From Minisyncoccota bacterium (lineage in GTDB: Bacteria; Patescibacteriota; Minisyncoccia; Phycocordibacterales; UBA2100): 64,000 nucleotides of DNA. This document shows, piece after piece, positions 7,577 through 61,792 of this stretch. Below the pieces are notes generated by a model. It was not told the DNA's origin, did no database searches, and saw nothing but the letters and a program-made list of their open reading frames with translations. Position 1 is the stretch's first letter. The number at the start of each line of letters is the position of its first letter. The stretch lies in assembly GCA_043780835.1 (NCBI GenBank), contig JAYWCB010000001.1, positions 103,738 through 167,737 on the forward strand, given 5' to 3'. The position numbers and the translations under genes were made by a program.

Positions 7577-9364
7577 CTAATTGACGTACTCAGGATGCTC
7601 CCGCTTGAGCCAGTAGAAGAAGGGTTGCAAACCGGGTGCGGCACCAGAGGCAGTGTGCGCCGGCGCTTTTTCAAGCACAACCGCGTACGCATATTTTGGA
7701 TTATCTGCAGGCCAAAATCCGATCGACCACGAATTCATATATTCGTTATGCGAACCCAGTTGCGCCGTTCCGGTTTTCGCCGCAATTTGAATGCCTGAAA
7801 TATTTAATGCCTTGACCGTCGCATCGGGGCGATCTGATGTAACCGCCATGCGCATGCCTTCCCGGGCAACCCGAAAGTACGCCACCGGAATATCGATTTG
7901 TCTGAATTCCGCCGTTGATGAGGCAAGTAGCTGCGGTTTTAAAAGCTTCCCCCCGTTTGCAATCGCCGCAGCAAATCGAACTGCTTGTAATGGTGTGATT
8001 TGAAATCCGAATTGTCCGATTGCTGTGTGATAGGTGTCTCCGATGCGCCACGGATCGTTCAGACCAAAATTCTTTTCTTTCCATTGAGGTGTCGGAATCA
8101 CACCCTCAACCTCACCTTTCAGGTCGATGCCGGTTCGCTCCGACATACCGAAGAGCCGTGCGTACTGGTCGATTTTCGAGATACCAAGACCGCGTTGTCC
8201 GCCAAAACCTCCACCAATGGTGTAAAAATATTCGTCTGAGGAAACTGCAATCGCTGTGCGCATGTCGACCAGGCCATGCACTGTCCAGTCCCGAAAAATC
8301 GACGGATTCGAGGGATCGTACGGATTTGGCAATACCAGCTTTCCGGTCGACAGGATACCCTTATCAGGCGAAATAATACCCTCCTGTAACGCAGCTATCG
8401 CAAATACCGGCTTCACGATAGATCCTGGCGTGTACAGTCCGCCGACAGCACGGTTGAGCATAGGCGAGTGCGTATTTTTCGAAATCGCGCTCACGATTGC
8501 GGAGTTTCCATCGGTGAAGGCTTGATTGTCGTACTCAGGAAAACTCGTGAGTGCGAGTAATTCTCCGGTGCGGATATCCATGATGACGGCGGCCCCACCC
8601 TTAAATCCCATTTCCTCCGCATGAGTCGCGAGGATTGTATTAAGTTTACTCTGCACGTCGGAATCAATTGAAAGATGGAGGTCTTCGCCATGCACTGGGG
8701 GAGAAACCATATTTTCCCGCTCCACATGTCCGTGTGCGTCCGCTTCGATCAGGCGGCTTCCGTTTTTTCCCGCAACACGCGCATCGTACGCAAGCTCCAA
8801 TCCCGAAACACCCGTGTATTCTTCTCGCCACCAGGTTCCATGCGCGTCGGATTTCGGATACTGCACAAATCCTAGAATATGTGCCATGCCGGGAACGGTC
8901 GTATATTTACGAAGTGCATACGTGTTGTCGTCTGTCGCGGTGGTGTTATCTTTTTTTGCCGCTATTGATCCATTTGCTGCTGTAATTCCTTCACGCAATG
9001 AATCCGTCGATGTGGAAACAGCGAGGGCGGTTTCGTTCCACGCGAGTTCGCGACCGGATCGATCGTAGATGATCCCACGCGTTGCAAATATAACCGATCG
9101 AGAAAGCGTGTTGTTTATTGAGATATCTTCGTACGTAGCCCCGTGCGCAACCTGTAGCGAAAATGCCCGGTAGCCGAAACCGAGCGAGACAAGTACGAAT
9201 ACTGCCCCGACAGCAAATATCGCTCTATTGGCGACAGGCCGTTCTACCCGACCCTCAAACGAGGCTGCGTTGAAATCCGGCAGATTTGACGAATCAAGAA
9301 AGATTTCCTCGGGCGCAATTTCGTATACTACCCGCATTTTCTTTCTTTTGAGTCGTCCGAACAT
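7577..9364 (-). CDS. mrdA: Penicillin-binding protein 2 (peptidoglycan D,D-transpeptidase MrdA)
   Basis: N-terminal TM anchor plus dimerisation domain. Transpeptidase motifs SIVKP (SxxK), SSD (SxN-like) and KTGTA (KTG). Positioned next to mreD/mreC/mreB. Confidence 0.85.
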   Translation of the reverse strand: MFGRLKRKKMRVVYEIAPEEIFLDSSNLPDFNAASFEGRVERPVANRAIFAVGAVFVLVSLGFGYRAFSLQVAHGATYEDISINNTLSRSVIFATRGIIYDRSGRELAWNETALAVSTSTDSLREGITAANGSIAAKKDNTTATDDNTYALRKYTTVPGMAHILGFVQYPKSDAHGTWWREEYTGVSGLELAYDARVAGKNGSRLIEADAHGHVERENMVSPPVHGEDLHLSIDSDVQSKLNTILATHAEEMGFKGGAAVIMDIRTGELLALTSFPEYDNQAFTDGNSAIVSAISKNTHSPMLNRAVGGLYTPGSIVKPVFAIAALQEGIISPDKGILSTGKLVLPNPYDPSNPSIFRDWTVHGLVDMRTAIAVSSDEYFYTIGGGFGGQRGLGISKIDQYARLFGMSERTGIDLKGEVEGVIPTPQWKEKNFGLNDPWRIGDTYHTAIGQFGFQITPLQAVRFAAAIANGGKLLKPQLLASSTAEFRQIDIPVAYFRVAREGMRMAVTSDRPDATVKALNISGIQIAAKTGTAQLGSHNEYMNSWSIGFWPADNPKYAYAVVLEKAPAHTASGAAPGLQPFFYWLKREHPEYVN

Positions 9365-9483
9365 TGTTCTACTATACGCGCTCGCCGCCGTAGTTCAATT
9401 CATGAACCCCGGTAGAAATCACGCCCGCACTTGCGCGCCCCACGGGACTTAGGGCGGGCTATTTCTAACAGGGGTCAACCATT

Positions 9484-9738
9484 TCAATGGAGAAATTCTA
9501 ATCGGAGCGGTTCAAATCCCCACACAAGAACGAGCGAAACGATAGTGCAAAGCGGAAACATAGTGAGCACAGAGTCATGCGGAAGCCACAGAAAATCAAG
9601 CAGGCTACCGAGCGCTACCGCCTCAAGCGCTCGAAATCGAACTGAAAGCACCACAATACACACCGCGGTTATCCACGGCGCAATAAATAATGAGGCGATT
9701 GCACCGAGCGCGGTACACATGACACGAAACGGAATCAT
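9484..9738 (-). CDS. mreD: Short MreD-like membrane protein
   Basis: 84-aa protein with 3 TM helices located between mreC and mrdA. Its start codon overlaps the mreC stop (ATGA). Assigned by position and hydrophobicity only. Confidence 0.4.
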   Translation of the reverse strand: MIPFRVMCTALGAIASLFIAPWITAVCIVVLSVRFRALEAVALGSLLDFLWLPHDSVLTMFPLCTIVSLVLVWGFEPLRLEFLH

Positions 9739-49904: not shown

Positions 49905-50282
49905 TTATGCGACTGCCGCTACGGATACAAATCCTCCATGGGACTCACGATGACAATTTGCACATAAAAGAATACATTTGTCCGCTTCAGTTTTCATTTT
50001 CTCCCAAGATCTGGTGATACCGCCCCTTGAAATTCCGAATGATTTATTCTTGTCGTCAGTATGATGCAGATCGAGCGCACCATAGTATTTACAATATCCA
50101 CAACGAACGCACTTTCCACCCTTGTACTCGACGAGCATTCTTTTAAGTTTTCTTCTACGGTCGGAAACTGCTTTTTTTAGATATTCCGCTCTATCGGCAT
50201 ATGTTCTTTTTTCTTTCTGAACCATGGTATACAAGATAAGTATACCGCGGGTTCTCAGCTTCACCGAATTGCAAATAGCCAT
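49905..50282 (-). CDS. HNH endonuclease
   Basis: CVRCGYC...LDLHHTDDKNKS...N...CILLCANCHRESH is a CxxC...HH...N...CxxCH zinc-finger HNH nuclease motif. The longer ORF (to 50462) would overlap the tRNA, so the start is placed at MAICNS (MVQKEK is also possible). Confidence 0.6.
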   Translation of the reverse strand: MAICNSVKLRTRGILILYTMVQKEKRTYADRAEYLKKAVSDRRRKLKRMLVEYKGGKCVRCGYCKYYGALDLHHTDDKNKSFGISRGGITRSWEKMKTEADKCILLCANCHRESHGGFVSVAAVA

Positions 50283-50325
50283 TTTTTGGCTACTATACGC
50301 AAGTCCATGCAGCGCATGGTCATAT

Positions 50326-50646
50326 TCCGCGGTGGCGCAACGGTAGCGCAGCTCGCTGTCAAAGGCAGCTTTCCGGAGGAATCCGGAAATGAAAACGAGG
50401 AGAATTGCTGGAAGCCTCACTTTTCGCGTTGAAAAAGTGGTAATCAGCAGCCGAGCCTGCATTCGCAGGAAGGTTCAGAGACTATCCCATATGGGAGTAG
50501 GTCCGCACAGTTAATTTTCTGGCGGCCCGAAGCACCTCGCATCCGACAACTATCTGATAGTTGGGATGATGATATAGTCCACCCCTTTTGGAAACATAAG
50601 GACACGTGTAACGAGTTGGTTGTAGGTTCGAATCCTACCCGCGGAG
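50326..50646 (+). tRNA. tRNA-Asn (anticodon GUU) interrupted by a group I intron in the anticodon loop
   Basis: Exon 1 is 50326-50359 (TCCGCGG-TG-GCGC-AACGGTA-GCGC-A-GCTCG-CTGT). Exon 2 is 50609-50646 (TAA-CGAGT-TGGTT-GTAGG-TTCGAAT-CCTAC-CCGCGGA-G). The spliced loop CUGUUAA and discriminator G match tRNA-Asn; anticodon UGU (Thr) is possible if the splice site is shifted. Confidence 0.75.
50360..50608 (+). ncRNA. Group I self-splicing intron (249 nt) within tRNA-Asn
   Basis: P1 can form between exon end GCUGU and internal guide GCAGC with a U-G pair at the 5' splice site. P 50403-50414, Q 50442-50451, R GTTCAGAGACTA 50473-50484, S GATGATATAGTCC 50568-50580. P2-like 50373-50386, P8-like 50547-50563. 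Intron ends in G. Confidence 0.75.
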
Positions 50647-52344
50647 CAAGTTAGGACGACGGGACTCGAAAGAGTCCTTTTGTCGTTTATTAGAGCCGAC
50701 TTTTTCAGGTTCTAACCCATTGGTTAATAACCTTTGATTTTTTATCTCGTTTTCGATCAGAAGATATGGATGCAGCATCTCTACGCTTAGCGTGCGGTCT
50801 TTTAGAGTTAGGTTCGAGCCGATTGATCCAAATATCGTTCGTTTCGTCTGTAAGTCGGCTGTAGTCGTGAATTGACGCTTTGCCAGTGCGCAAAATGAGA
50901 AAACCCGCTCAGCTGTTTCCAAATCCCGATCTAATTTTTCCTTTGTGCCGAAAAGTTCTGCTTCCAGACGGCCCCGTTCTATGTTCAGCTCCATCTTGAG
51001 CTTTCGAAACTCCTCTTGCGTGTAGAGCTCATAATTCGTGTTCAGCGGGGATGTGAATTCACGACTCAAGTTCACCAAACGTTTCTGACATGTGTCGTAG
51101 GACGATTGCAGCGACTGTCGCATAGCCCTTTCTTCGCGGCCTGAATTCTTCTCTACATCATTAAGGTAATCGAGGGCTAGTTTCAAGTAGTCCTCGTCAA
51201 TTGTCAATCCGGTTAGTATCTGCGAAAACTGAAGTTCTAAAGATTCGAGGCGTATCGTTTTTTGTGAGCATTTTCTATTCTTCTTCTTTGTACATCGGTA
51301 ATATACATAATTCAGAATTGTGGGTTTTGTCATCGCAGAGATGTCCATATGGCAATTCGGGCAAGCCGATTTGCTTTCGTATGCAAACTTATGCTTACAG
51401 CTTGTGCAGATCAACTGATTCTTTTCCTCTGCGGTAATCGAAGAATCGCATTCACCGCATCGCATAAGGCCTGTGTAAGCGAATTGTCGCGTCTTAGGCT
51501 GCTGTTTTCCTCTTTTACCTAACAATATTTGGGCGCGACGGTATTCCGCCTCCGTAATGATTGGTCGATGATTTCCTTTGATCATTCTGCGCTCACCGCT
51601 CTCTGGGTCGGTCCACGGATAAGATCCATAGTAAAAAGTATCACTGAAGATGTTATACATGTGGCTCATCGAAAGAGGTTTACCGCCGATTTTTCGACGC
51701 GGCAGAGTCGTTAGATGCCACTCTTTCGTTGCGATATCTCGGATCTTAGAAACAGAATATGCGCCCGTCAGAAACAGATCCCACATTTTACGCACTAGCT
51801 CAAAACGTTCGGGATCAATGTCTATAGTTTTGCTTCCTTTTTCTGTGCCGACATTAAGATAACCAATTGGACCTCCAGATGGACGCCAACCCCGCATTGC
51901 TTTGCTATTGAGACCTCGTTTTACGTTCTTTGACAAACGCATCACATAGTCCGTGGCACGTCCACCCTCAATACTCATGAGCAATCCGGCATCTTCCGGG
52001 TAGTAAGAACGTCCGGGGGTTTTTATCTCCTTTATGACACCCTTTTGAAGCATCCATTGCAGGCGCCCGTTATCAATCGGATTGCGAGAAAGACGATCGA
52101 TATCCCAACACAAAAGCCCATTGGCTTCACCAGACTGTATTCGGTCTAATAGGGCGTCGAACACAGGCCTCCCCGGGTCTTTAGCGCTACGCTCTTCAGT
52201 AAAGGGTTCTCGCGCCAAAACAACGCCCTCACGCTCAGCGAGTCCGCTTAGGGCATTGATTTGATCGCCTATAGATGCAACTTGCCGCTGCGAGTCTTCT
52301 GAACTCTTACGGCAGTATGCAAAGTATTTTAGAGACTGACCCAT
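50635..52344 (-). CDS. Large serine recombinase (resolvase/invertase-type catalytic domain, recombinase domain and zinc ribbon)
   Basis: N-terminus KYFAYCRKSSEDSQRQVASIGDQ (catalytic Ser region) ... DIDRLSRN. Central recombinase domain. Cys-rich zinc ribbon (CGECDSS...CTSC...CPNC). Coiled coil. Last codons LLRG and the stop lie inside the tRNA-Asn 3' acceptor stem. Confidence 0.85.
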   Translation of the reverse strand: MGQSLKYFAYCRKSSEDSQRQVASIGDQINALSGLAEREGVVLAREPFTEERSAKDPGRPVFDALLDRIQSGEANGLLCWDIDRLSRNPIDNGRLQWMLQKGVIKEIKTPGRSYYPEDAGLLMSIEGGRATDYVMRLSKNVKRGLNSKAMRGWRPSGGPIGYLNVGTEKGSKTIDIDPERFELVRKMWDLFLTGAYSVSKIRDIATKEWHLTTLPRRKIGGKPLSMSHMYNIFSDTFYYGSYPWTDPESGERRMIKGNHRPIITEAEYRRAQILLGKRGKQQPKTRQFAYTGLMRCGECDSSITAEEKNQLICTSCKHKFAYESKSACPNCHMDISAMTKPTILNYVYYRCTKKKNRKCSQKTIRLESLELQFSQILTGLTIDEDYLKLALDYLNDVEKNSGREERAMRQSLQSSYDTCQKRLVNLSREFTSPLNTNYELYTQEEFRKLKMELNIERGRLEAELFGTKEKLDRDLETAERVFSFCALAKRQFTTTADLQTKRTIFGSIGSNLTLKDRTLSVEMLHPYLLIENEIKNQRLLTNGLEPEKVGSNKRQKDSFESRRPNLLRG

Positions 52345-52355
52345 ATTCCCGTTAA

Positions 52356-52742
52356 TTATAGCCCCTTCGGCAATTGAATTGCGACTCTGAGGGCCTTTTC
52401 ACGCGCCCCGATGATGAGCTGAAGTCTGGCAATATCTACAGCCTCTAAGTGTGTTAGTGCAGGAAGGAGTTCGCGAATGTCGACTAATTTTGCCAAATTG
52501 GCTTGAGCTATCAGTAGTTCAACATGAATAGCCGTTACTTTTTCCATTTCCACTTTTGGTGCACCTCGATATCCCTCCCGAAGACCGTATTTGTATCCTT
52601 TCATTCGCCCATCTTCGAACGCCCCCTCGCTTAATACGACAAAAGCGTGTTCTGACCAGAAGGTTTGGCCGCATAGCCTGCACCTAAAGTGGTCATGGGG
52701 ATGATCTGCTACGGCCTCAAGACGATGGAAATGAATTTTCAT
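52356..52742 (-). CDS. Hypothetical protein with a His/Cys cluster (possible zinc-binding)
   Basis: 128 aa with HPHDHFRCRLCGQTF near the N-terminus. Sits between the AAA ATPase and the recombinase. Confidence 0.35.
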   Translation of the reverse strand: MKIHFHRLEAVADHPHDHFRCRLCGQTFWSEHAFVVLSEGAFEDGRMKGYKYGLREGYRGAPKVEMEKVTAIHVELLIAQANLAKLVDIRELLPALTHLEAVDIARLQLIIGAREKALRVAIQLPKGL

Positions 52743-52852
52743 ATTAGTTTGTTTTGGTGGTAATTTCGCAATAGTTATTAATACACTTACCGAATTGCCA
52801 TCTTGTTATCCCTCAAGGGGAAAAACCTTAAGTGGCAATTTGGTAACATTAT

Positions 52853-54022
52853 TTAGCTAGTATCGAAAAAATTACCTTGTTCGATGGAGCCTAAGGTATC
52901 GGCCTCAGAAATAGAGCCGTTTTCCGCTTGAGGCAGAAAGTAGAACTTTTCTTTGCCGCGTTTAATCGAATCTATACTTTCGGACGCTTCTAATTCCCTG
53001 AGCGCATCCGATACGTTCTTCTCACCGATCTTCCTATCCTGAAGGATTTTCAATACTTCTCGCCTCGTTCTACCCGATTCCTCGAGGATATTGAGTATTG
53101 CTTCCTTGGCTTCCTCTTTTTTCGTCTCCTTACTTTCGAGTGGACCGCAATATTTAAATCTGATCCTCGGCTCGCCCAAATCATTTATGTAGTCCTCCAT
53201 TTGTATGGCGAAGGGGTCTACCTCCTTGCCTGTACGGTTTTTTCGTTGATAGACGTGAATCTCACCATTTCCTTCATTTCTGAGCATTAGTAAGGCTTCT
53301 GCACTTGCTGCTTTATCGATCGAACCAAATAGATGCTCCTTTTTGGGAATCTTTCCCTCGAAATTCGAGGGTTTGCGGTAATGGTCCAATACAATGACGC
53401 TGACACCAGAATTCTTCAGAACGCTAAACTTTTTAAATGATGCACGTACTTCTTCGGCCTTTTCCTCTTTAAGGCCTCCTGCAACGGCTCGATAGGTGTC
53501 AGCAACAACAACATCAATTCGATTTTGCTGCACATATTTAAGGAGCCACCTGTAGTCCCTGGTCTCACAAACTGTTCCCGGTGCGTATATGTTGAAATCA
53601 TCGCGATTTAGGAAAAACAGATCTTTGTTGCCGTTGTCGATTCCAAGCAACTTTCCTCGGCGCTGCATTTCGCTTTCAGACATTTCCGCATTGATGTACA
53701 AAACGCGACCACCGATAGTTTTAAAATGATCCAAGAATTCGGTAAACTCGGAGATACATTTTGCGATATACATAGCGAGCCAGGTTTTACCTTCGCCGGC
53801 TATTGCAGCAATTATTGTGACCCCCTGAACTGGCACAAGATCTTGAATGCGCCATAACGCCTTGGGTAAATCCTTGGACCCGAATTGATTCCAGCCCTGG
53901 GGTTTTGGATATCCAATGTCTTCATCGTATTCTTCCTCGACTGCAGGATCGTAACGCGTCGAATACACCAACTTATGTAGCGGTGTGGCATCCGGTGGTA
54001 GGTCATTGTCCATAAAAATCAT
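52853..54022 (-). CDS. RepA/DnaB-like RecA-fold AAA ATPase (AAA_25-type) with a C-terminal winged-helix region
   Basis: Walker A IAGEGKTWLAMYIAK. INAEMSE, Walker B DVVVADTYRA and VLDHYRKP match the plasmid/phage RepA-DnaB C-terminal fold. K/E-rich C-terminus with HTH-like ILQDRKIGEKNVSDALRELE. Confidence 0.65.
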   Translation of the reverse strand: MIFMDNDLPPDATPLHKLVYSTRYDPAVEEEYDEDIGYPKPQGWNQFGSKDLPKALWRIQDLVPVQGVTIIAAIAGEGKTWLAMYIAKCISEFTEFLDHFKTIGGRVLYINAEMSESEMQRRGKLLGIDNGNKDLFFLNRDDFNIYAPGTVCETRDYRWLLKYVQQNRIDVVVADTYRAVAGGLKEEKAEEVRASFKKFSVLKNSGVSVIVLDHYRKPSNFEGKIPKKEHLFGSIDKAASAEALLMLRNEGNGEIHVYQRKNRTGKEVDPFAIQMEDYINDLGEPRIRFKYCGPLESKETKKEEAKEAILNILEESGRTRREVLKILQDRKIGEKNVSDALRELEASESIDSIKRGKEKFYFLPQAENGSISEADTLGSIEQGNFFDTS

Positions 54023-54671
54023 GCGTTTTAGGCTTATAAATAGCGTCTACTAGCGCGATCAATTTTTCGAAATATTCCAAAGCGGCATCGTCAGAAATAG
54101 CGCTGCCGGTCGTCTCCTCGTAGAGAGTTTTGAATCTTTCGATGTATCTATTTTTTTCGACCATAGCAAAAACCTCCACTCAGCTCTGCGGATCACTTGG
54201 ATGATTCGCAGAACTAAAGGGAGGTTCAGCAGAGTCCAAGTTTCCGCAAATAAAAAATACCGCCTATTAAGCGGATTCTTGGACTGGTATGAGATTTATA
54301 CGATACAGGCTAAGAATGTCGCTTAAAGCAAGCAGTATTCTTAAACCCACAGCAGATCGTTACGCAAAAGAGTTTTGCGAAAAACGGCATTGGGTGCCTG
54401 AAAGAACGTCCCACCAATCATATCCACCTTTTAGATCTGGTCAATTGATTTATCCCCAGAGACTGCAATAATAACTTCACAATTGAATATCGAGCCGCAA
54501 GGCTAGTGCCTAAACCGCCGGAGCAATCCTCGGCATGGCACGAAATCCCACGTGAATACTGAACCCGTCGTTCAGCTCCATTCACGTGGTCTTACGGGGA
54601 AACTCGTAAGGAGCAGCAATGCTCGGCTAGCGGCGGGCTTTGTGTTGCCTGCCGCAAGCATTATTTAAGTA

Positions 54672-55667
54672 ATGCGAATCATGAAAAAATTTAGCGCAAT
54701 TCTCTTCTTTTTAATTTCTTTACAAACGACTATTGTTTATGCAAGTTCCGGTGCTTGCTCTGATCACGGCGGTATCAATTGCAGTGCCGGTGCCGGTACT
54801 GGTGGGAGTGTAATTTGTAATGATGGGTGGTCAAATAGTTCGGTGTTATTTTCAAGTGCTGATGAGTGTAAAATCTCATGCACACCGCCGAGCGCATCAG
54901 GTTGTAAAACTGAAAACGACTACGGGGCCTTGCAGGTACAGCTCAACGCATCGGGCGGTTATCTCGGCGCGGGATCTTCGCAGACGGGCGCATTGAACCA
55001 GTGCCGTAGCGAGATAAATGCATATCAGGCGAACCTACAGGTCTACAACACCTGCCAAGCCAACAGCTCGTCAAACGCCTCCGTTTCTAGCAATGCAGAT
55101 TCATACCTTAAGGCAAAGATGCAACAATATTGCGTCAATACATATGGCCCACAAAGTTTTTCCAATTATTCAGATAAAACATGTGGATGTAACAGCGGCT
55201 ATAGCTTGACTGCACAAGGATGTTTGCTCAAGCCTAAAACTAACCTAGGAATCACAACATCAACAACAATCGAATCGTGTGAAAATAATGGGGTTAAGGG
55301 TTACAAAATAAATGGCCAATGTGTTTTCCCAACAGGGACATCCACGACGATTGACCTAAACAAGCCGATTACTGGAATCCTGTCAGATATTAGCTCATGG
55401 CAAAACGTGCCAACGTCTACAAACCAAAAAATTGTTTCTCAATTTAATAGAAGCTTAGCGAGGGGTATGCGTGGCAATGATATTATTCAACTTCAAACAT
55501 TGCTTCAAAATCTTGGGTATCTCCCTACGAGTACTAAGCCTACTAATTACTTCGGGTCGCTAACTCAAAAAGCAGTGATCGCGTTCCAATTAGCTCATGG
55601 CATCACGCCACCACAGGGGTATGTAGGGCCTAAGACGGGAGCTACTCTTATCCAGACAAACTATTAG
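54672..55667 (+). CDS. Secreted Cys-rich protein with a C-terminal peptidoglycan-binding (PG_binding_1-like) domain
   Basis: Signal peptide, a Cys-rich N/S-rich body, and a C-terminus LARGMRGNDIIQLQTLLQNLGYLP...FGSLTQKAVIAFQLAHGITPPQGYVGPKT resembling PG_binding_1. Confidence 0.55.
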   Translation: MRIMKKFSAILFFLISLQTTIVYASSGACSDHGGINCSAGAGTGGSVICNDGWSNSSVLFSSADECKISCTPPSASGCKTENDYGALQVQLNASGGYLGAGSSQTGALNQCRSEINAYQANLQVYNTCQANSSSNASVSSNADSYLKAKMQQYCVNTYGPQSFSNYSDKTCGCNSGYSLTAQGCLLKPKTNLGITTSTTIESCENNGVKGYKINGQCVFPTGTSTTIDLNKPITGILSDISSWQNVPTSTNQKIVSQFNRSLARGMRGNDIIQLQTLLQNLGYLPTSTKPTNYFGSLTQKAVIAFQLAHGITPPQGYVGPKTGATLIQTNY

Positions 55668-55693
55668 ACAATGGGCCTGTACGTTAGTATGAA

Positions 55694-55894
55694 ATGAGTA
55701 TGATAAAACTAACACTCAAAGCGGTAGCAGGAATGTCGGATGATGAGATTTACAAGCTCTCTATGCCGCGCCCATTCCACCCCGAGGCACGCGGCTTTAT
55801 GCTTGACCCACAAAGTTTTGGAAGTCAGCAGGAAATGTCGGAATGTCTAGCAGCTCTGATGAAACGTCTTGGGGAAATACAAAAAAATAAGTGA
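55694..55894 (+). CDS. Hypothetical small protein
   Basis: 66-aa ORF inside the island. No motif. Confidence 0.25.
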   Translation: MSMIKLTLKAVAGMSDDEIYKLSMPRPFHPEARGFMLDPQSFGSQQEMSECLAALMKRLGEIQKNK

Positions 55895-56065
55895 TCATCG
55901 TTGTTACCGAAAACAATGACCCTTGGGTGCGAAGCGCCTAGTATCAAGTTCGTTCAATCGTTTTTATTCTAGATCTAGTAATCATTTTAGACCTGATTGT
56001 TTATCATTTCTTACGCTAGCAATTCAGTCTTGTGTTGACCGAAGGCTTATTGCATAGTTGCGTAT

Positions 56066-56299
56066 ATGAAGAAACTCTCCCTATTGCTTCTTGTCGCTTT
56101 CTTGGTGCCAACTGTCGCGCTGGGAGCATCTCTGCATCACTATAAGAATGTAGACGGTATTTCGGTTGAAAACCCAATCCAATCCCAGGTTATACCTGTC
56201 GGAGCGACCGCTCAATGTAAGGACCGGTCCTACAGCTTCAGCCTGCATCACAGGGGCGCGTGTTCACATCATGGCGGAGTCAGTAAGTGGATTCAATAA
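56066..56299 (+). CDS. DUF3761-like small secreted protein
   Basis: Signal peptide plus CKDRSYSFSLHHRGACSHHGGVSKWI, which matches the DUF3761 pattern (CxDGTYSxSxHRxGxCSHHGGV). Confidence 0.55.
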   Translation: MKKLSLLLLVAFLVPTVALGASLHHYKNVDGISVENPIQSQVIPVGATAQCKDRSYSFSLHHRGACSHHGGVSKWIQ

Positions 56300-56302
56300 A
56301 AA

Positions 56303-57739
56303 ATGCGAAATATATACATTATTGTCATAGCAATCGCATCGTTAATTGCTATCGGAATATTTGCCGGCACATCGAATCATTCCAGTTCCGAAACCGCCTC
56401 GCATCAAAGCCCACTCAATCCTGCAATGAGCGACTTTTTTGATCAGTACGACATCTATTTCACCGGCTGGAATAATTACTTACGAAATGGCCAAGATTTA
56501 GGTCTAACCGAAACGGGATCCTCTAGCTTGCAGGCATTTGAGCTTGGGATGTCTAAAAATGCTACGTCCACTGCTACAGAGGCAGAAATATCGCGTCAAA
56601 TCAAAAAAGGTCAAACGGAAGGGCGTGTTCTCACCGTGCTCCCCCATAGTGCATTCGTGATCGAAAGTCACAGTCCGAATGAAGCTAATTTGTCCTACGG
56701 ATCATTAACTCCAACCGTCTTGCAGTTTAATGGCGAAACGTTTACGCGGGACGCTGTAAATTCAAATTATTATGTGGATGGGAACCACATAGTCTACGTT
56801 GGGTGTTTAGAACAGACGTTTAATGAGAGATCAAATGGGAATCTTTGCTCGCAATATGGATTATATGTGGACCATAAATTAATTGATCAAACATTCAAGT
56901 CAGACGCAAACAAATTCTTTGATCTGACAATTTACCCTATACGCGACCACGTGGTCTACTACTCAAAAAGTGAAAGTGGCGGCGATAACCCATTTTTTGC
57001 GTACAATTTAGAAACGGGAATAAAGTCACCGTTGTCTGCAAGCGACGGTTTCGAATGTGAGCTTCTAGGCTTTGTAAATCGTCTGCCAGTCAACCTATGC
57101 GTAAATTTCGATAAATATCCGAGCAGCGATATATCCGTTGGCGGTGTACGCAAATATGAAATTTCTCGATCAAAGGACGACGTAGGCTCAGTCTCGCAAA
57201 GAATACTAGTGGCTAATGATCATGTTTATTACAGCGTGGTCAACAAACCTGCCGATTCATCTTCACCTATTAAGGCCTCACTTATTCGCGATGGTTTAAA
57301 AGTCGCTGAGGCTGAGGAAGCTTCTTCACAATACTTTTACGATGGTTATACTTATCCTACCAACGGAACGGACACGGGATGTTTGTTCGCAAATGATCAA
57401 CCCGGACCATCTTTTTGTATTGTAGGTAATGATGTAATCTCACGTAGTAATTTTGGTTTTGATCAGAATGAATACTACCTAAACGGACAAATCATTGATT
57501 TTACAAACTACTACAACGTGATTTTGACACCACAGGATCCGAAATGGGATGGAAAAAAGCCAAGCATATGGCAATTGGATTTTTTGCCCGACAGCAAAGG
57601 CAAACTTTCTAAGGTACTGTTTGAAACTTTGTCACCACACGATATTTATGTGTCAGATATACTCCCAAATAATACGATTTCGAGCCCCCAACTCTTGGTC
57701 AGCAACGTGGGAGCCATCGTAGGTGCAAGCCATAAATAA
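56303..57739 (+). CDS. Hypothetical membrane-anchored extracellular protein
   Basis: 478 aa with an N-terminal TM helix and a beta-rich N/S/Y-rich body. No motif. Confidence 0.45.
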   Translation: MRNIYIIVIAIASLIAIGIFAGTSNHSSSETASHQSPLNPAMSDFFDQYDIYFTGWNNYLRNGQDLGLTETGSSSLQAFELGMSKNATSTATEAEISRQIKKGQTEGRVLTVLPHSAFVIESHSPNEANLSYGSLTPTVLQFNGETFTRDAVNSNYYVDGNHIVYVGCLEQTFNERSNGNLCSQYGLYVDHKLIDQTFKSDANKFFDLTIYPIRDHVVYYSKSESGGDNPFFAYNLETGIKSPLSASDGFECELLGFVNRLPVNLCVNFDKYPSSDISVGGVRKYEISRSKDDVGSVSQRILVANDHVYYSVVNKPADSSSPIKASLIRDGLKVAEAEEASSQYFYDGYTYPTNGTDTGCLFANDQPGPSFCIVGNDVISRSNFGFDQNEYYLNGQIIDFTNYYNVILTPQDPKWDGKKPSIWQLDFLPDSKGKLSKVLFETLSPHDIYVSDILPNNTISSPQLLVSNVGAIVGASHK

Positions 57740-57826
57740 AAACGTGGCCACGCCTTGGGAAGTTGATCCCGGATCGCTCATCATGCTGTGGAGGTGCGCG
57801 AGACGGCAATTTGATATGTTGTTTAC

Positions 57827-58498
57827 ATGTGCGGACGCTTCACTATCGCAAATACGGCAAGAGTGATTGAGCGACGCTTCGGCGCGAAATTCATAAGCCC
57901 TGCCTGGGTGCCGACATTTAATGCCGCACCCTCGCAATTTTTACCAATAATTACAGGAATAGACGCGTCGCACATCACGCTCGCAAAGTGGGGCTTTGTC
58001 CCCGAATGGGATTTAAAGCACAAATTAAAGCCCCAGATAAACGCGAGAATTGAAACGACGGCAGAAAAACCATCATTCAGGGACGCATACCGATCACGCC
58101 ATTGCATTGTTATAGCTGACGGGTATTACGAATGGCGGAGAGTCGGTTCGCGAAAAATCCCGTACCGATTTACTAGAAAAGACGGCGACATGATGTCATT
58201 TGCCGGAATATGGTCACGATCGAGCGATGAATCGCCAACAACCTTCGCCGTATTGACGACGGATTCCGTCGGGGAGGCCAAGAAATACCATCATCGCATG
58301 CCCGTTATCTTGAGGCCTGGGAAGGAGCGAATTTGGCTGCCAACGGGCCCAGGATTGCTTATACCGCCTCAAAATGAAGAAGATGCGATCATGGCGCAGC
58401 GTGTTTCGGAGGCTGTAAACGACGTTGGATTCAACGCTCCGGAGGCAATTAAGCCTGTTGCGGACGATTCACTGTTATTTATCCAAAAACTAGCGTGA
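57827..58498 (+). CDS. SOS response-associated peptidase (SRAP/YedK family; abasic-site DNA-protein crosslink protein)
   Basis: MCGRF N-terminus (catalytic Cys2), ...AKWGFVPEW..., INARIET..., ADGYYEWRR and FAGIW are SRAP hallmarks. Confidence 0.8.
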   Translation: MCGRFTIANTARVIERRFGAKFISPAWVPTFNAAPSQFLPIITGIDASHITLAKWGFVPEWDLKHKLKPQINARIETTAEKPSFRDAYRSRHCIVIADGYYEWRRVGSRKIPYRFTRKDGDMMSFAGIWSRSSDESPTTFAVLTTDSVGEAKKYHHRMPVILRPGKERIWLPTGPGLLIPPQNEEDAIMAQRVSEAVNDVGFNAPEAIKPVADDSLLFIQKLA

Positions 58499-58626
58499 CC
58501 TATATTTGACGGCGGTTCTTGATCGGATATCTAAGTGTCGGTAATAGAGCCGTGGGGTCTAAATTTTCCCTTCCGGGGGCCTAGGAGAGCGCGGCAGATC
58601 AGTGGAACTTCCATCTAACATCGCAA

Positions 58627-60003
58627 TTAGTCGTCGACATCTCGCTTCTTAATGACTCCACTTTGGATCAGTATTTGGAATAATAGTCCGTCATTAAAGA
58701 GTCGCAAAAAAGTACGCTTCGCAGATTCAAGCAAGACGTCATCGGAAGCCTGTGCCATCAAGTCATTTACTTCTCGTAGCGCCGGAAGCGCTGAGGGATC
58801 ATCCTTGTATTTCAATAGAAAACCCCGCACCTGACTTTTAGGTAAGAGGCTAATTACCATCCTGCTAGGCAGATAATCTTCGGGAAATTCAGGTAAAGGA
58901 GGCGTCGATATAAATTTAACTTTATACGAGGTGTACCCATACTCACTTGTTTTCGTCTCCACTATTTCGGCGAGATCATTCCCAGCAAGTACGATATCGC
59001 CTTTTTCAAACAATCGCCTAAAGTTGTGCGTTATAAGAGCGGGTCCCCATGACTGGCCGTCCTTTTGTACTTTACTAATATCATCAGGATCATCGAAGTT
59101 TAGAAGCTCATTAATCCGACTGATCGAGTGCAGACTTAGAAGCGATATCATCGCAATATTGTCGCGTATACTTTTGTGAGAGTAGTGTTTCTCGTTCCTA
59201 GCACCTGCCTCGGGATGAACAGATCCGCTGAGATCCGAAAAAAAATTGAAATACGAGCCACCCATGACGATCCTTTCCTCATCTCTAGCAAGAGATAGGG
59301 CTCGTTTATAACTGCTGCGCGCCGTGCTGAATACAGAAGAAGATTTTGTCGTCTCCCATTCGGCTTTAAGAAACCACGGTCGTGCATTGACCTTGGACAG
59401 GTCAGCGCGAATCCGTCCGCGAAACAATTTGATGGAACTGTCGGTATTATGACTGGTGAATCCGTAAAATTCCTTTGAATCAGATTGTCTGCCTAAAAAC
59501 CGATCTAAATTCTCAGCGCTCAAATACATACGATACGCCTCGTCGACGTTGGTATTCGAGAAATTGATCAGATTTATTAGAATTTCGATCAGCTTTCTCG
59601 CTAAAGTATTTTGACGATCGATCATAGCTTCTACTACCGCTCGACCCAGCGTATCAAGATCAATACTTTTTAGATCTTCAACCAACAAATCTTGCTCAAC
59701 CATGATTGATGCGCCGGCTTTCAGGATCTGCCGAGCATAGCCATATAAAAAAAGTCTTTTGGCTTCAGCAGGCGAAATATTGGCGAATCGCGCCCGCGTA
59801 TAAAAAGTGTCGTTGGGAAAGATTCTATTCAGGAGACGATTCGACTGTCTCGTCACGGAAGAAACGAAAAAAGTAGTTTCTGGATCTATTCTTAAATGTC
59901 GGCGGCGGAAGCTACCTAGCTTGGATTCGATTTTTATCAAAAACCTCGCAAAACCAATTTTCCATTTTGGAACTGACTCCTCGTCCCTTGGATGCGCAGA
60001 CAT
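58627..60003 (-). CDS. Hypothetical protein (458 aa) of unknown function, island cargo
   Basis: Long soluble ORF with no TM segment and no recognisable catalytic motif. Convergent with the SRAP gene. Confidence 0.45.
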   Translation of the reverse strand: MSAHPRDEESVPKWKIGFARFLIKIESKLGSFRRRHLRIDPETTFFVSSVTRQSNRLLNRIFPNDTFYTRARFANISPAEAKRLFLYGYARQILKAGASIMVEQDLLVEDLKSIDLDTLGRAVVEAMIDRQNTLARKLIEILINLINFSNTNVDEAYRMYLSAENLDRFLGRQSDSKEFYGFTSHNTDSSIKLFRGRIRADLSKVNARPWFLKAEWETTKSSSVFSTARSSYKRALSLARDEERIVMGGSYFNFFSDLSGSVHPEAGARNEKHYSHKSIRDNIAMISLLSLHSISRINELLNFDDPDDISKVQKDGQSWGPALITHNFRRLFEKGDIVLAGNDLAEIVETKTSEYGYTSYKVKFISTPPLPEFPEDYLPSRMVISLLPKSQVRGFLLKYKDDPSALPALREVNDLMAQASDDVLLESAKRTFLRLFNDGLLFQILIQSGVIKKRDVDD

Positions 60004-60079
60004 ATGGCCACATTATCATCGCTCATATAAAGGCGATATTCCATAGACGTGGGGGCCAAATTTTTCCCCCCGGGGGTCG

Positions 60080-61792
60080 CTAGACTACAACGGGGACGTA
60101 AAAATCCCGTCCGCCGGCAATTACCCAGGTTCTAACAGCCTCAACGGTTCGGAGCAATGTAGGACCAAGGGACTCGAAAGAGTCCTTTTGTCGTTTAGAC
60201 ATTGGCTTTTTGGAGGTTCGAGCGGACACTTCTTCAGAATCCAAAGAATGCTTATTCTCCATTATGGTTAAGAAGAAAGGATGTAGGTCTACATTGATTT
60301 TTTGGTCTTTTAGCACGAGGTTCGAGCCGAGGCACGCGAGAATGGAACGCTTGGTCACTTTATCTCCGTTCTCGAACCAAACACGCGCATAACAGGCAAA
60401 ATTGAACGTCTTTTCACTCAATTCAAGCCATTGCTCCTTCTCTCGACCCTTATCCGCTAAATCACTCTCAAGCGAATTTTTGCGATTGAGGAGCGTACCC
60501 TTCATAGATTGATATTCATTATTTGAAATAAGACTGCTGTCTGCGTTTTGGAGCGACGTATATCTCAACAAGAGACCGTCAAGCTGCTTGTTAATCACTT
60601 CTAGCTCCGCGTGTTTTTTTCGCAAATCTTTTTCCTGATTTTCGGCTTCAGTTGTTCGAATTTCAGAAAGATGTTTAAGAGCCCACGCTTTAAACTTTTC
60701 CGAAATGGTTACGCTTTCAAGAAGCTCTAGGACCTGACGGTTCAATTCCTTAAGTTCAATTGATTTTTCCGTACAGTTAGGATTTTTCTTATGTGTGCAG
60801 TGGTAATAGACATAATGATGTACATTTCCGTTTTTTTGCTGCTTAACTTTCGGTTCGGCAGTAATACTGCTACCGCAGCTCGCACAACGCATCAGACTGC
60901 CCGTAAAGGCCATTTCGTGATGTGTCTTTGGTCGCGGCGCACCCTTCCGACCTAGACGTTCCTGCACTAGGTTATATTCCCACTCACATATCATCGGCTC
61001 ATGTTGACCTTTCTGCCACACAAGTTCTCCCGTGTCTTTATCCTTATATTGAAACCACCCGTAATAAAAAGAATTTTTGAATATGTTTTTATAAACGTAG
61101 CTGCGCGTTAAATGCTTTCCACCAATATTTCTATGCGGAACTGTTGTGAGGCCCCATTCCTTTGACTGTTTCCAGACTTCGGCGGCAGTGTATTGCCCCG
61201 CAAGCATCAAGTCCCACATTCTACGGACCAGATAAAAGCGCTCTGGGTCTTTCTCAATGGTCTTATATCCCTTTGGTTTATCGGGAGTATTGCGATAGCC
61301 AATGGGCGCCCCTGACGGTCTCCAACCCAACTTTGCTTTGCTATTCAGACCTCGCTTTACATCAATACCCTTGTTGTCGTTTTCCAACTTTGCCTGCATA
61401 CACAGGAAGCTCAACCAAAACTTATTATCTGGTGTATTTCGATAAGTTTGTTGCGGAGTCCTGACCTCAACAACCGTATTAAGGTCGAGAAGGTAAATTA
61501 GAGTTCCTGTATCAACCGCATTTCTTGAAAGTCTATTGGGATGCCAAACAAGAATTCCGCTCGCTTCGCCCATATTAATCCGCTCCACCATTGTTTTGAA
61601 GTCAGGTCTGCTATTGGGGACTTTTGCCGAGTGCGATTCCTCAAACCAATCCACAATCTTTAAATCATCCTTATCCGCAATTATTTTCAGTTCCTCACGC
61701 TGCGAAGAAATCGAGAGCATTTGTCGGTCTTCTTGCTCACTCGACTTTCTCAAATACGCAAAGTATTTAATGGGACTCTTTTCCAAGGACAT
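60080..61792 (-). CDS. Large serine recombinase (paralog of 50635-52344)
   Basis: KYFAYLRKSSEQEDRQMLSISSQ ... HPNRLSRN, a zinc ribbon (CASCGSS...HYVYYHCTHKKNPNC) and a coiled coil. Shares the C-terminal KRQKDSFES motif with the first recombinase. Confidence 0.85.
   Translation of the reverse strand: MSLEKSPIKYFAYLRKSSEQEDRQMLSISSQREELKIIADKDDLKIVDWFEESHSAKVPNSRPDFKTMVERINMGEASGILVWHPNRLSRNAVDTGTLIYLLDLNTVVEVRTPQQTYRNTPDNKFWLSFLCMQAKLENDNKGIDVKRGLNSKAKLGWRPSGAPIGYRNTPDKPKGYKTIEKDPERFYLVRRMWDLMLAGQYTAAEVWKQSKEWGLTTVPHRNIGGKHLTRSYVYKNIFKNSFYYGWFQYKDKDTGELVWQKGQHEPMICEWEYNLVQERLGRKGAPRPKTHHEMAFTGSLMRCASCGSSITAEPKVKQQKNGNVHHYVYYHCTHKKNPNCTEKSIELKELNRQVLELLESVTISEKFKAWALKHLSEIRTTEAENQEKDLRKKHAELEVINKQLDGLLLRYTSLQNADSSLISNNEYQSMKGTLLNRKNSLESDLADKGREKEQWLELSEKTFNFACYARVWFENGDKVTKRSILACLGSNLVLKDQKINVDLHPFFLTIMENKHSLDSEEVSARTSKKPMSKRQKDSFESLGPTLLRTVEAVRTWVIAGGRDFYVPVVV

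Follow-up and report, generated by a model that had tools for sequence, protein, structure and literature searches.

The locus analysed here raises the question of whether two adjacent genes on a putative mobile element, one encoding an SOS-response-associated peptidase (SRAP) and the other a protein of 458 residues, constitute a functional module or are independent passengers. Both lie in a 64,000-nucleotide stretch of DNA from a Minisyncoccota bacterium (the window), and the original prediction regarded them as a candidate two-gene system dedicated to DNA damage or to defence against phages. Such a system would have been a new gene pair of its kind; its refutation saves experimental effort. 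Our analysis favours, with a probability of around 0.7, two unrelated passengers on an element mobilised by its own large serine recombinase, the SRAP being of the YedK type and the 458-aa protein a conflict protein that is independent of it.

Arrangement of the gene pair

The two open reading frames are located exactly at 57827–58498 on the + strand (SRAP) and at 58627–60003 on the − strand (458-aa protein), and are indeed convergent as had been described, with a spacer of 128 bp (58499–58626) between the stop codons. An operon-like layout, with genes on the same strand and a short spacer, is not what we observe for this pair and, being convergent, the two genes are not co-transcribed. The SRAP gene is the final one of a co-directional + strand cluster (54672–58498), and the 458-aa gene occupies the right tip of the element, on the strand opposite to this cluster.

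A delimited integrative element in an intron-split tRNA gene

The assignment of both genes to the cargo of a recombinase-bearing island is confirmed. This island, designated element 1, is a 9,508-bp unit (50642–60157) with the 8-bp repeat CGGAGCAA at both ends: the left copy (50642–50649) corresponds to the crossover region and left junction, and the right copy (60150–60157) to the junction with a second element. A contig of 9,516 bp recovered from a different sample (L007) matches window positions 50642–60157 with 0 mismatches and has CGGAGCAA at its start and end; since this identical contig has the same ends, element 1 is a discrete unit with precise junctions. The defined junctions, the independent contig and the presence of catalytic, recombinase and zinc-ribbon domains in the recombinases of both elements identify element 1 as integrative, and on the chromosome side of the window we find bacterial genes of an ordinary kind, among them those for PPDK, PBP2 and histidine kinases.

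The insertion site of element 1 is the 3' end of a tRNA-Asn(GUU) gene, within its final bases; this gene is split by a group I intron. The 5' exon (50326–50359, +), delineated by reading the sequence, comprises the acceptor, the D arm, the anticodon stem and the loop up to U35; the intron (50360–50608, +) interrupts the anticodon loop and was identified by the Rfam model RF00028, which matches at 50350–50601 with 71.4 bits (gathering score 50, E=9e-17); and the 3' exon (50609–50646, +) has its final 5 nt within the left CGGAGCAA copy (attL). The P1 helix of the intron contains a U·G pair (50359/50365), and the splice ends were set using ARAGORN, which did not call tRNA-Asn on the unspliced sequence and called tRNA-Asn(gtt) once 50360–50608 had been removed in silico. 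A tRNA-like T-arm and acceptor strand are found directly to the left of the recombinase gene.

This recombinase, SR1 (50635–52344, −; 569 aa), has Pfam Resolvase, Recombinase and Zn_ribbon_recom domains, and its stop codon comes from the tRNA sequence. A further large serine recombinase with Resolvase, Recombinase and zinc ribbon domains, SR2 (60080–61792, −), belongs to the second tandem element, which begins at 60150 and extends beyond the window end. The SR1 and SR2 proteins are 38% identical, yet the 3' 48 nt of their genes, located 9,508 bp apart, have 92% DNA identity, and for this reason a DNA site (an attP arm) fits better than a protein constraint as an interpretation of the common segment. 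The predicted circular junction of element 1 reads ...CAACGGTTCGGAGCAAGTTAGGACG... and would encode an SR1 of 590 aa, 21 residues longer than the integrated form; as the crossover falls within the 3' coding end of SR1 itself, integration would trim the recombinase by these 21 residues. Both in the predicted circular form and in the actual tandem arrangement, the 458-aa gene lies on the same strand as a recombinase ORF whose end is 76 bp upstream. A 9.5-kb element from an uncultured bacterium that is so cleanly delimited, with exact junctions, offers a test case for predicting the targets of recombinases.

The remaining cargo comprises, on the − strand, a 128-aa ORF (52356–52742), also found in L007 and for which there is no match in Pfam or PHROG, and an AAA_25/DnaB-like ATPase (52853–54022; PF13481, E=1.2e-25) that matches primase and DnaB-like helicase families in PHROG and is a putative replication or helicase module. 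The + strand cluster is preceded, at 47 nt, by a LOOT RNA motif (54507–54624, +; Rfam RF03000, 71.6 bits against a gathering score of 46.4), of which another copy is present in a related element (L025); as LOOT is an orphan RNA motif, element 1 offers a first clue to its genomic context. The cluster itself consists of a protein whose N-terminus is hydrophobic and which has a peptidoglycan-binding domain at the C-terminal end (54672–55667, +; PG_binding_1, E=9.6e-15), two small ORFs, a co-directional ORF of 478 aa, with a hydrophobic segment at its N-terminus, directly upstream of the SRAP (56303–57739, +) and the SRAP. The hydrophobic N-terminus of the peptidoglycan-binding protein suggests that it may be secreted, and the SRAP is probably expressed together with these upstream envelope genes.

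An SRAP of a kind common on mobile DNA

The identification of the 223-aa protein with an MCGRF start as an SRAP holds: residues 1–200 cover profile positions 1–214 of 214 of PF02586 with E=3e-53 and 180.9 bits (cut-off 27.1), PDB matches include YedK and HMCES, two PDB entries being annotated as 'phage-related' SRAPs, and the catalytic residues C2, N72 (INARIE), E102 (DGYYEW) and H155 (HHRMP) are all intact, the last three aligning with N75, E105 and H160 of YedK in the PDB alignments. The protein probably acts like YedK, by homology with which Cys2 would crosslink covalently, as a thiazolidine, to abasic sites in single-stranded DNA, so that the DNA of the element or of the host may be shielded during replication.

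The top identity of the window SRAP to any database protein is 48%. Its nearest relatives are stand-alone genes found among those of a luciferase-like oxidoreductase, a glyoxalase and an amidohydrolase, and in one case among transposase genes. Carriage on a mobile element is not a new property of these proteins, as the paper that founded the family already noted copies in phage SPBc2 (SPbeta) and in prophages (PMC3765255). By tblastn, 44 phage and 1,654 plasmid records contain a relative, and the window protein matches phrog_1599 (E=2.4e-46). A mobile SRAP is thus an already known kind of passenger, and the one in the window is an ordinary mobile copy.

Family, conservation and predicted structure of the 458-aa protein

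The 458-aa protein had been described as having no recognisable domain, a statement that comes close to being right. Searches of NCBIfam and PHROG returned no match, PADLOC-DB v2 (5,027 models) gave none for this protein, the SRAP or three neighbouring proteins, and the sole Pfam match is to DUF5677 (PF18928), with E=5e-4 and 20.6 bits, under the cut-off of 27.1. In this match, which qualifies the earlier description, residues 127–268 align to profile positions 26–154 of 166. As the score is below the gathering threshold, the protein is to be regarded as a distant DUF5677 relative and not as a formal member. The same profile is matched by 10 of 12 close relatives and by 31 of 110 wider relatives, some reaching E=1.4e-6 to 1.5e-8, which makes the whole family a distant and longer sister group of DUF5677. 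With the PADLOC search empty, a known defence system is rejected; nothing above threshold in NCBIfam or Pfam argues likewise against a housekeeping family. We also reject a phage protein, given that there is no PHROG match and no relative in viral contigs; a tblastn search covering 50,697 phage and 72,556 plasmid records found none.

An exhaustive profile search puts the size of the family at around 450, with 453 representatives after clustering at 50% identity, most of them full-length proteins of 400–470 aa. The diversity of the wider alignments (A3 and A4) made them unsuitable for retrieving loci, and a final word-indexed search with A3 added a single usable protein. Across 110 family sequences R136 and H263, both within the segment aligned to DUF5677, are invariant, and conservation is 90% or higher for E140, D175, N186, W210, Y251, S259, G335, D336, V338 and G356. 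Rare members are fused to an N-terminal excisionase-type HTH_17 domain (one protein) or carry two SH3 domains, likewise N-terminal.

The structure prediction that had been called for yielded a confident model. Whereas a first AlphaFold2 model, based on 12 sequences, had a pLDDT of 65.6, the alignment of 110 sequences resulted in a pLDDT of 92 and a pTM of 0.88. The predicted structure consists of a long all-α body (residues ~13–330), a five-stranded SH3/Tudor-like β-barrel (~333–390) and C-terminal helices. Foldseek comparison of both models with the PDB and BFVD found no match at E≤1e-3, so the helical body is without a PDB or viral analogue at this level; only the barrel resembles Tudor/SH3-like domains and small phage proteins. 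The resemblances to ABC transporters, GPCRs and F-BAR domains were discarded as generic long-helix noise (TM-scores below 0.25), and a profile search of PDB sequences with the family found nothing below E=1. A HEPN-type RNase is rejected because 127 residues separate the invariant Arg from the His, so that the two do not form an R-x(4-6)-H motif, and HEPN structures are absent from the Foldseek matches; an active site like that of tyrosine recombinases is rejected on motif order and spacing. The family therefore combines around 450 clusters, a confidently predicted structure without a solved analogue and two invariant residues that can be targeted by mutation.

Genomic neighbourhoods of the homologs

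We have analysed 25 independent loci with homologs of the 458-aa protein, amounting to ~230 kb of context; L007, being the same element, was not counted among these. Twenty of them are recognisably mobile or defence loci and the other 5 have uninformative or metabolic neighbours, so that the homologs do occupy mobile and defence islands, in line with the setting that had been expected for the window protein. In 8 of the 25 loci (L012, L013, L016, L017, L022, L025, L026 and L030) the homolog adjoins a large serine recombinase from the subfamily to which SR1 and SR2 belong, and depending on the locus the two genes are convergent, divergent or co-directional. Restriction-modification (R-M) or other defence genes are present within 5 kb of the homolog in 12 loci: six have TaqI or MvaI/BcnI endonucleases and LexA-S24-methyltransferase fusions, usually head-to-head with the homolog, and the remaining defence neighbours are two methylases, GmrSD-HNH, Mrr, a MutH-like nuclease, HEPN_AbiU2, ThsB-TIR and a PIN toxin. 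Elsewhere we observe TraG-like coupling proteins and an IS30 transposase, and tRNA genes are found at the island tips of L017, L025, L026 and L029. A preprint on RADS reported that in Bacillota DUF5677 is statistically enriched beside serine recombinases and apparently co-transcribed with them; the one DUF5677 ORF tested there does not figure among the ORFs that it reports as protective against six Enterococcus phages (10.1101/2025.10.07.681051). Our loci extend this Bacillota-only association with recombinases to candidate-phyla lineages.

The SRAP is missing from these neighbourhoods. Searches with the window SRAP (phmmer) and with a profile HMM of 121 SRAP sequences detected no SRAP in any of the 25 loci, the only match among the homolog contigs being in L007, that is, in the same element. 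Reciprocally, phmmer and profile HMM searches of three independent loci encoding the nearest SRAP relatives detected nothing related to the 458-aa protein. Many homolog contigs are short, and on these a missing neighbour carries less weight. The genes being convergent and their co-occurrence 0/25 and 0/3, the two-gene module put forward for this locus is not supported.

Weighing the possible roles of the two proteins

In the reading that we favour, SR1 would mobilise a 9.5-kb element in which the SRAP and the 458-aa gene sit at the attR-proximal end, and which is followed in tandem by an element at the same target site. The 458-aa protein would be a stand-alone mobile-element conflict protein, involved in defence, exclusion or maintenance of the element and working without the SRAP, with the all-α domain providing a putative active or binding site centred on Arg136 and His263, and the SH3/Tudor-like barrel possibly acting as a recognition module. 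We infer that a lone mobile-element conflict or maintenance factor is its most likely role, although several points count against it: DUF5677 proteins have no known activity, the one tested in the RADS preprint is not listed there as protective, PADLOC gives no match, viral contigs, phages and plasmids contain no relative, and the helical body has no structural analogue. That the two proteins form a dedicated DNA-damage or anti-phage module is, by comparison, very improbable. Their physical adjacency on a mobile element is what suggested it, and there is a loose thematic echo in the six loci in which the homolog faces a fusion of LexA/S24, an SOS-type autopeptidase, with a methyltransferase, as two different SOS-associated peptidase families are thus seen beside the 458-aa family. 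However, to the convergent orientation and the lack of co-occurrence it must be added that the nearest SRAP relatives stand alone in metabolic neighbourhoods and that SRAPs are widespread on phages and plasmids without a partner, collections in which the 458-aa protein has no relative. The same six loci (L005, L008, L010, L013, L014 and L029; homologs 35–46% identical) raise the possibility of a damage-induced effector under LexA-like control, serving as an auxiliary R-M arm in the LexA-S24-methyltransferase clade and captured here without its regulator. Their head-to-head synteny and the spacers of 50–85 bp, whose locus-specific direct repeats are candidate operators, are consistent with such control, but the R-M pair of endonuclease and methylase is complete without the homolog, and the window copy, like many homologs, has neither a LexA-methyltransferase neighbour nor a corresponding motif. 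An operator motif that the window would have in common with these loci was rejected, the upstream region in the window having no GTTATCCACA box or repeats. We regard this alternative as quite improbable.

A role closer to the recombinase is that of an accessory factor, a recombination directionality factor or regulator, whose expression is tied to the state of the element. It agrees with the adjacent same-subfamily serine recombinases of 8 of 25 loci and of the window, with the excisionase-type HTH_17 of one family member and with the 76-bp same-strand arrangement predicted for the circular form and seen in the tandem array, an arrangement that, for DUF5677, the RADS preprint counted as co-transcription (10.1101/2025.10.07.681051). 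Seventeen of the 25 loci, including long contigs (L001, L005, L010, L011, L019, L024 and L029), are nevertheless devoid of a recombinase, the orientation relative to the recombinase varies, and both the invariant Arg/His pair and the size of 458 aa are atypical for known directionality factors. As these factors are mutually unrelated, the lack of homology to them is no objection, but on balance an accessory role is rather unlikely. A broader proposal would combine several of these elements: the DUF5677-like family would represent a single-protein effector of new fold, directed against phages or plasmids, or a recombinase accessory, with expression switched by topology. Excision or tandem insertion would set the 458-aa gene 76 bp downstream of a recombinase ORF, and integration would shift it to the end of the element opposite the recombinase; a link to DNA-damage signalling may run via the LexA-type neighbours in other lineages. 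Taken as a whole this proposal appears unlikely, and two unrelated passengers, with the 458-aa protein acting on its own, remain the reading that we favour.

Comparison with known systems

In its integration machinery element 1 resembles the elements and prophages in which a large serine recombinase targets tRNA genes: the integrase combines Resolvase, Recombinase and Zn-ribbon domains, insertion at the 3' end keeps the tRNA intact, and a short core is common to both junctions. Unlike in these systems, the crossover of element 1 lies inside the 3' coding end of SR1, the target tRNA gene has a group I intron, and two elements whose recombinases are 38% identical are found in tandem with the same 48-nt arm.

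The window SRAP has the Cys2 nucleophile and the Asn/Glu/His residues of YedK and HMCES, including the phage copies (SPbeta-type; PDB 1zn6 and 2bdv), and like the SPbeta-type phage SRAPs it is carried on a mobile element; SPbeta likewise employs a large serine recombinase. It differs from the SPbeta-type and prophage SRAPs in residing on a 9.5-kb non-phage integrative element of an uncultured bacterium, and it has at most 48% identity to any database protein. The family of the 458-aa protein is recombinase-adjacent, as is the DUF5677 of the RADS preprint (10.1101/2025.10.07.681051), but it comes from uncultured lineages (Saccharibacteria and Omnitrophota MAGs) and not from Bacillota. Its proteins, of about 430–460 aa, also extend beyond the 166-position DUF5677 model, with an additional helical region at the N-terminus and, at the C-terminus, an SH3/Tudor-like barrel that lies outside that model.

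Integration site and recombinase genes

The integration site of the island (element 1) is the tRNA-Asn(GUU) gene at window 50326-50646 (+ strand), in which a group I intron of 249 nt separates anticodon position 35 from position 36. ARAGORN calls this gene only after in-silico splicing, the unspliced gene being missed. Just upstream, on the opposite strand and overlapping the tRNA, we observed an ORF (49905-50462, - strand) with an HNH-like motif (CxxC...HH...CxxCH), for which a Pfam search at E≤0.01 returned no match; it may be a homing endonuclease.

The crossover region (50642-50689 and 60150-60197) falls in the 3' coding end of the recombinase gene itself. The integrated SR1, the large serine recombinase of element 1, has 569 aa, with the tRNA sequence providing the stop codon, and is predicted to have 590 aa when read across the circular junction. 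SR2, that of the tandem element 2, lies directly against element 1 and for this reason already has the long form. Along this 48-nt arm SR1 and SR2 are 92% identical, the recombinases themselves being 38% identical. At the junction of the two elements (60100-60210) the order is element 1 right arm, core (the 8-bp direct repeat) and element 2 left arm, and the junction is attP-like rather than attR/attL-like, a structure for which an origin by successive simple attP x attB integration fails to account.

Cargo of the element

In the protein collection, a 102-aa product of the source NCBI contig shares one 90% cluster with the 223-aa SRAP, a YedK-like abasic-site protein (57827-58498); since the clustered product has only 102 aa, against 223 aa, the SRAP gene call as deposited may be truncated.

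The orphan LOOT RNA motif (Rfam RF03000) is found on the + strand at window 54507-54624 (71.6 bits) and at 716-842 of a further locus, L025 (78.2 bits), the gathering score being 46.4, and in each case a co-directional gene starts 20-50 nt downstream. Both hosts are independent tRNA-integrated elements with a large serine recombinase and a gene of the 458-aa family, and a scan of 26 further loci found no other copy, which suggests that LOOT is an RNA of mobile elements.

Loci with LexA-S24-methyltransferase fusions

In loci L005, L008, L010, L013, L014 and L029, which encode homologs of the DUF5677-like 458-aa protein, the Type II R-M system includes a fusion protein in which the methyltransferase is joined to a LexA DNA-binding domain, present in full, and an S24 autopeptidase domain. 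The L029 homolog (8337-9664) is likely a pseudogene, as its reading is broken into three frames; the MvaI/BcnI R-M system beside it is intact, and a further neighbour is a GTPase of the dynamin family, whose gene adjoins tRNA-Asn.

The spacers of these loci lie at L005 3158-3250, L008 2336-2404, L010 911-995, L013 459-543, L014 2993-3042 and L029 8215-8340. The sequence GTTATCCACA, with a perfect DnaA-box 9-mer inside it, abuts the start codon of 458-aa homologs opposite the fusion genes, and also that of one GIY-YIG gene facing such a fusion. The short spacers carrying it have direct repeats too, differing by locus, which look like putative operators. The fusion of LexA DNA-binding and S24 autopeptidase domains to the methyltransferase implies that modification in these systems would be under DNA-damage-responsive control.
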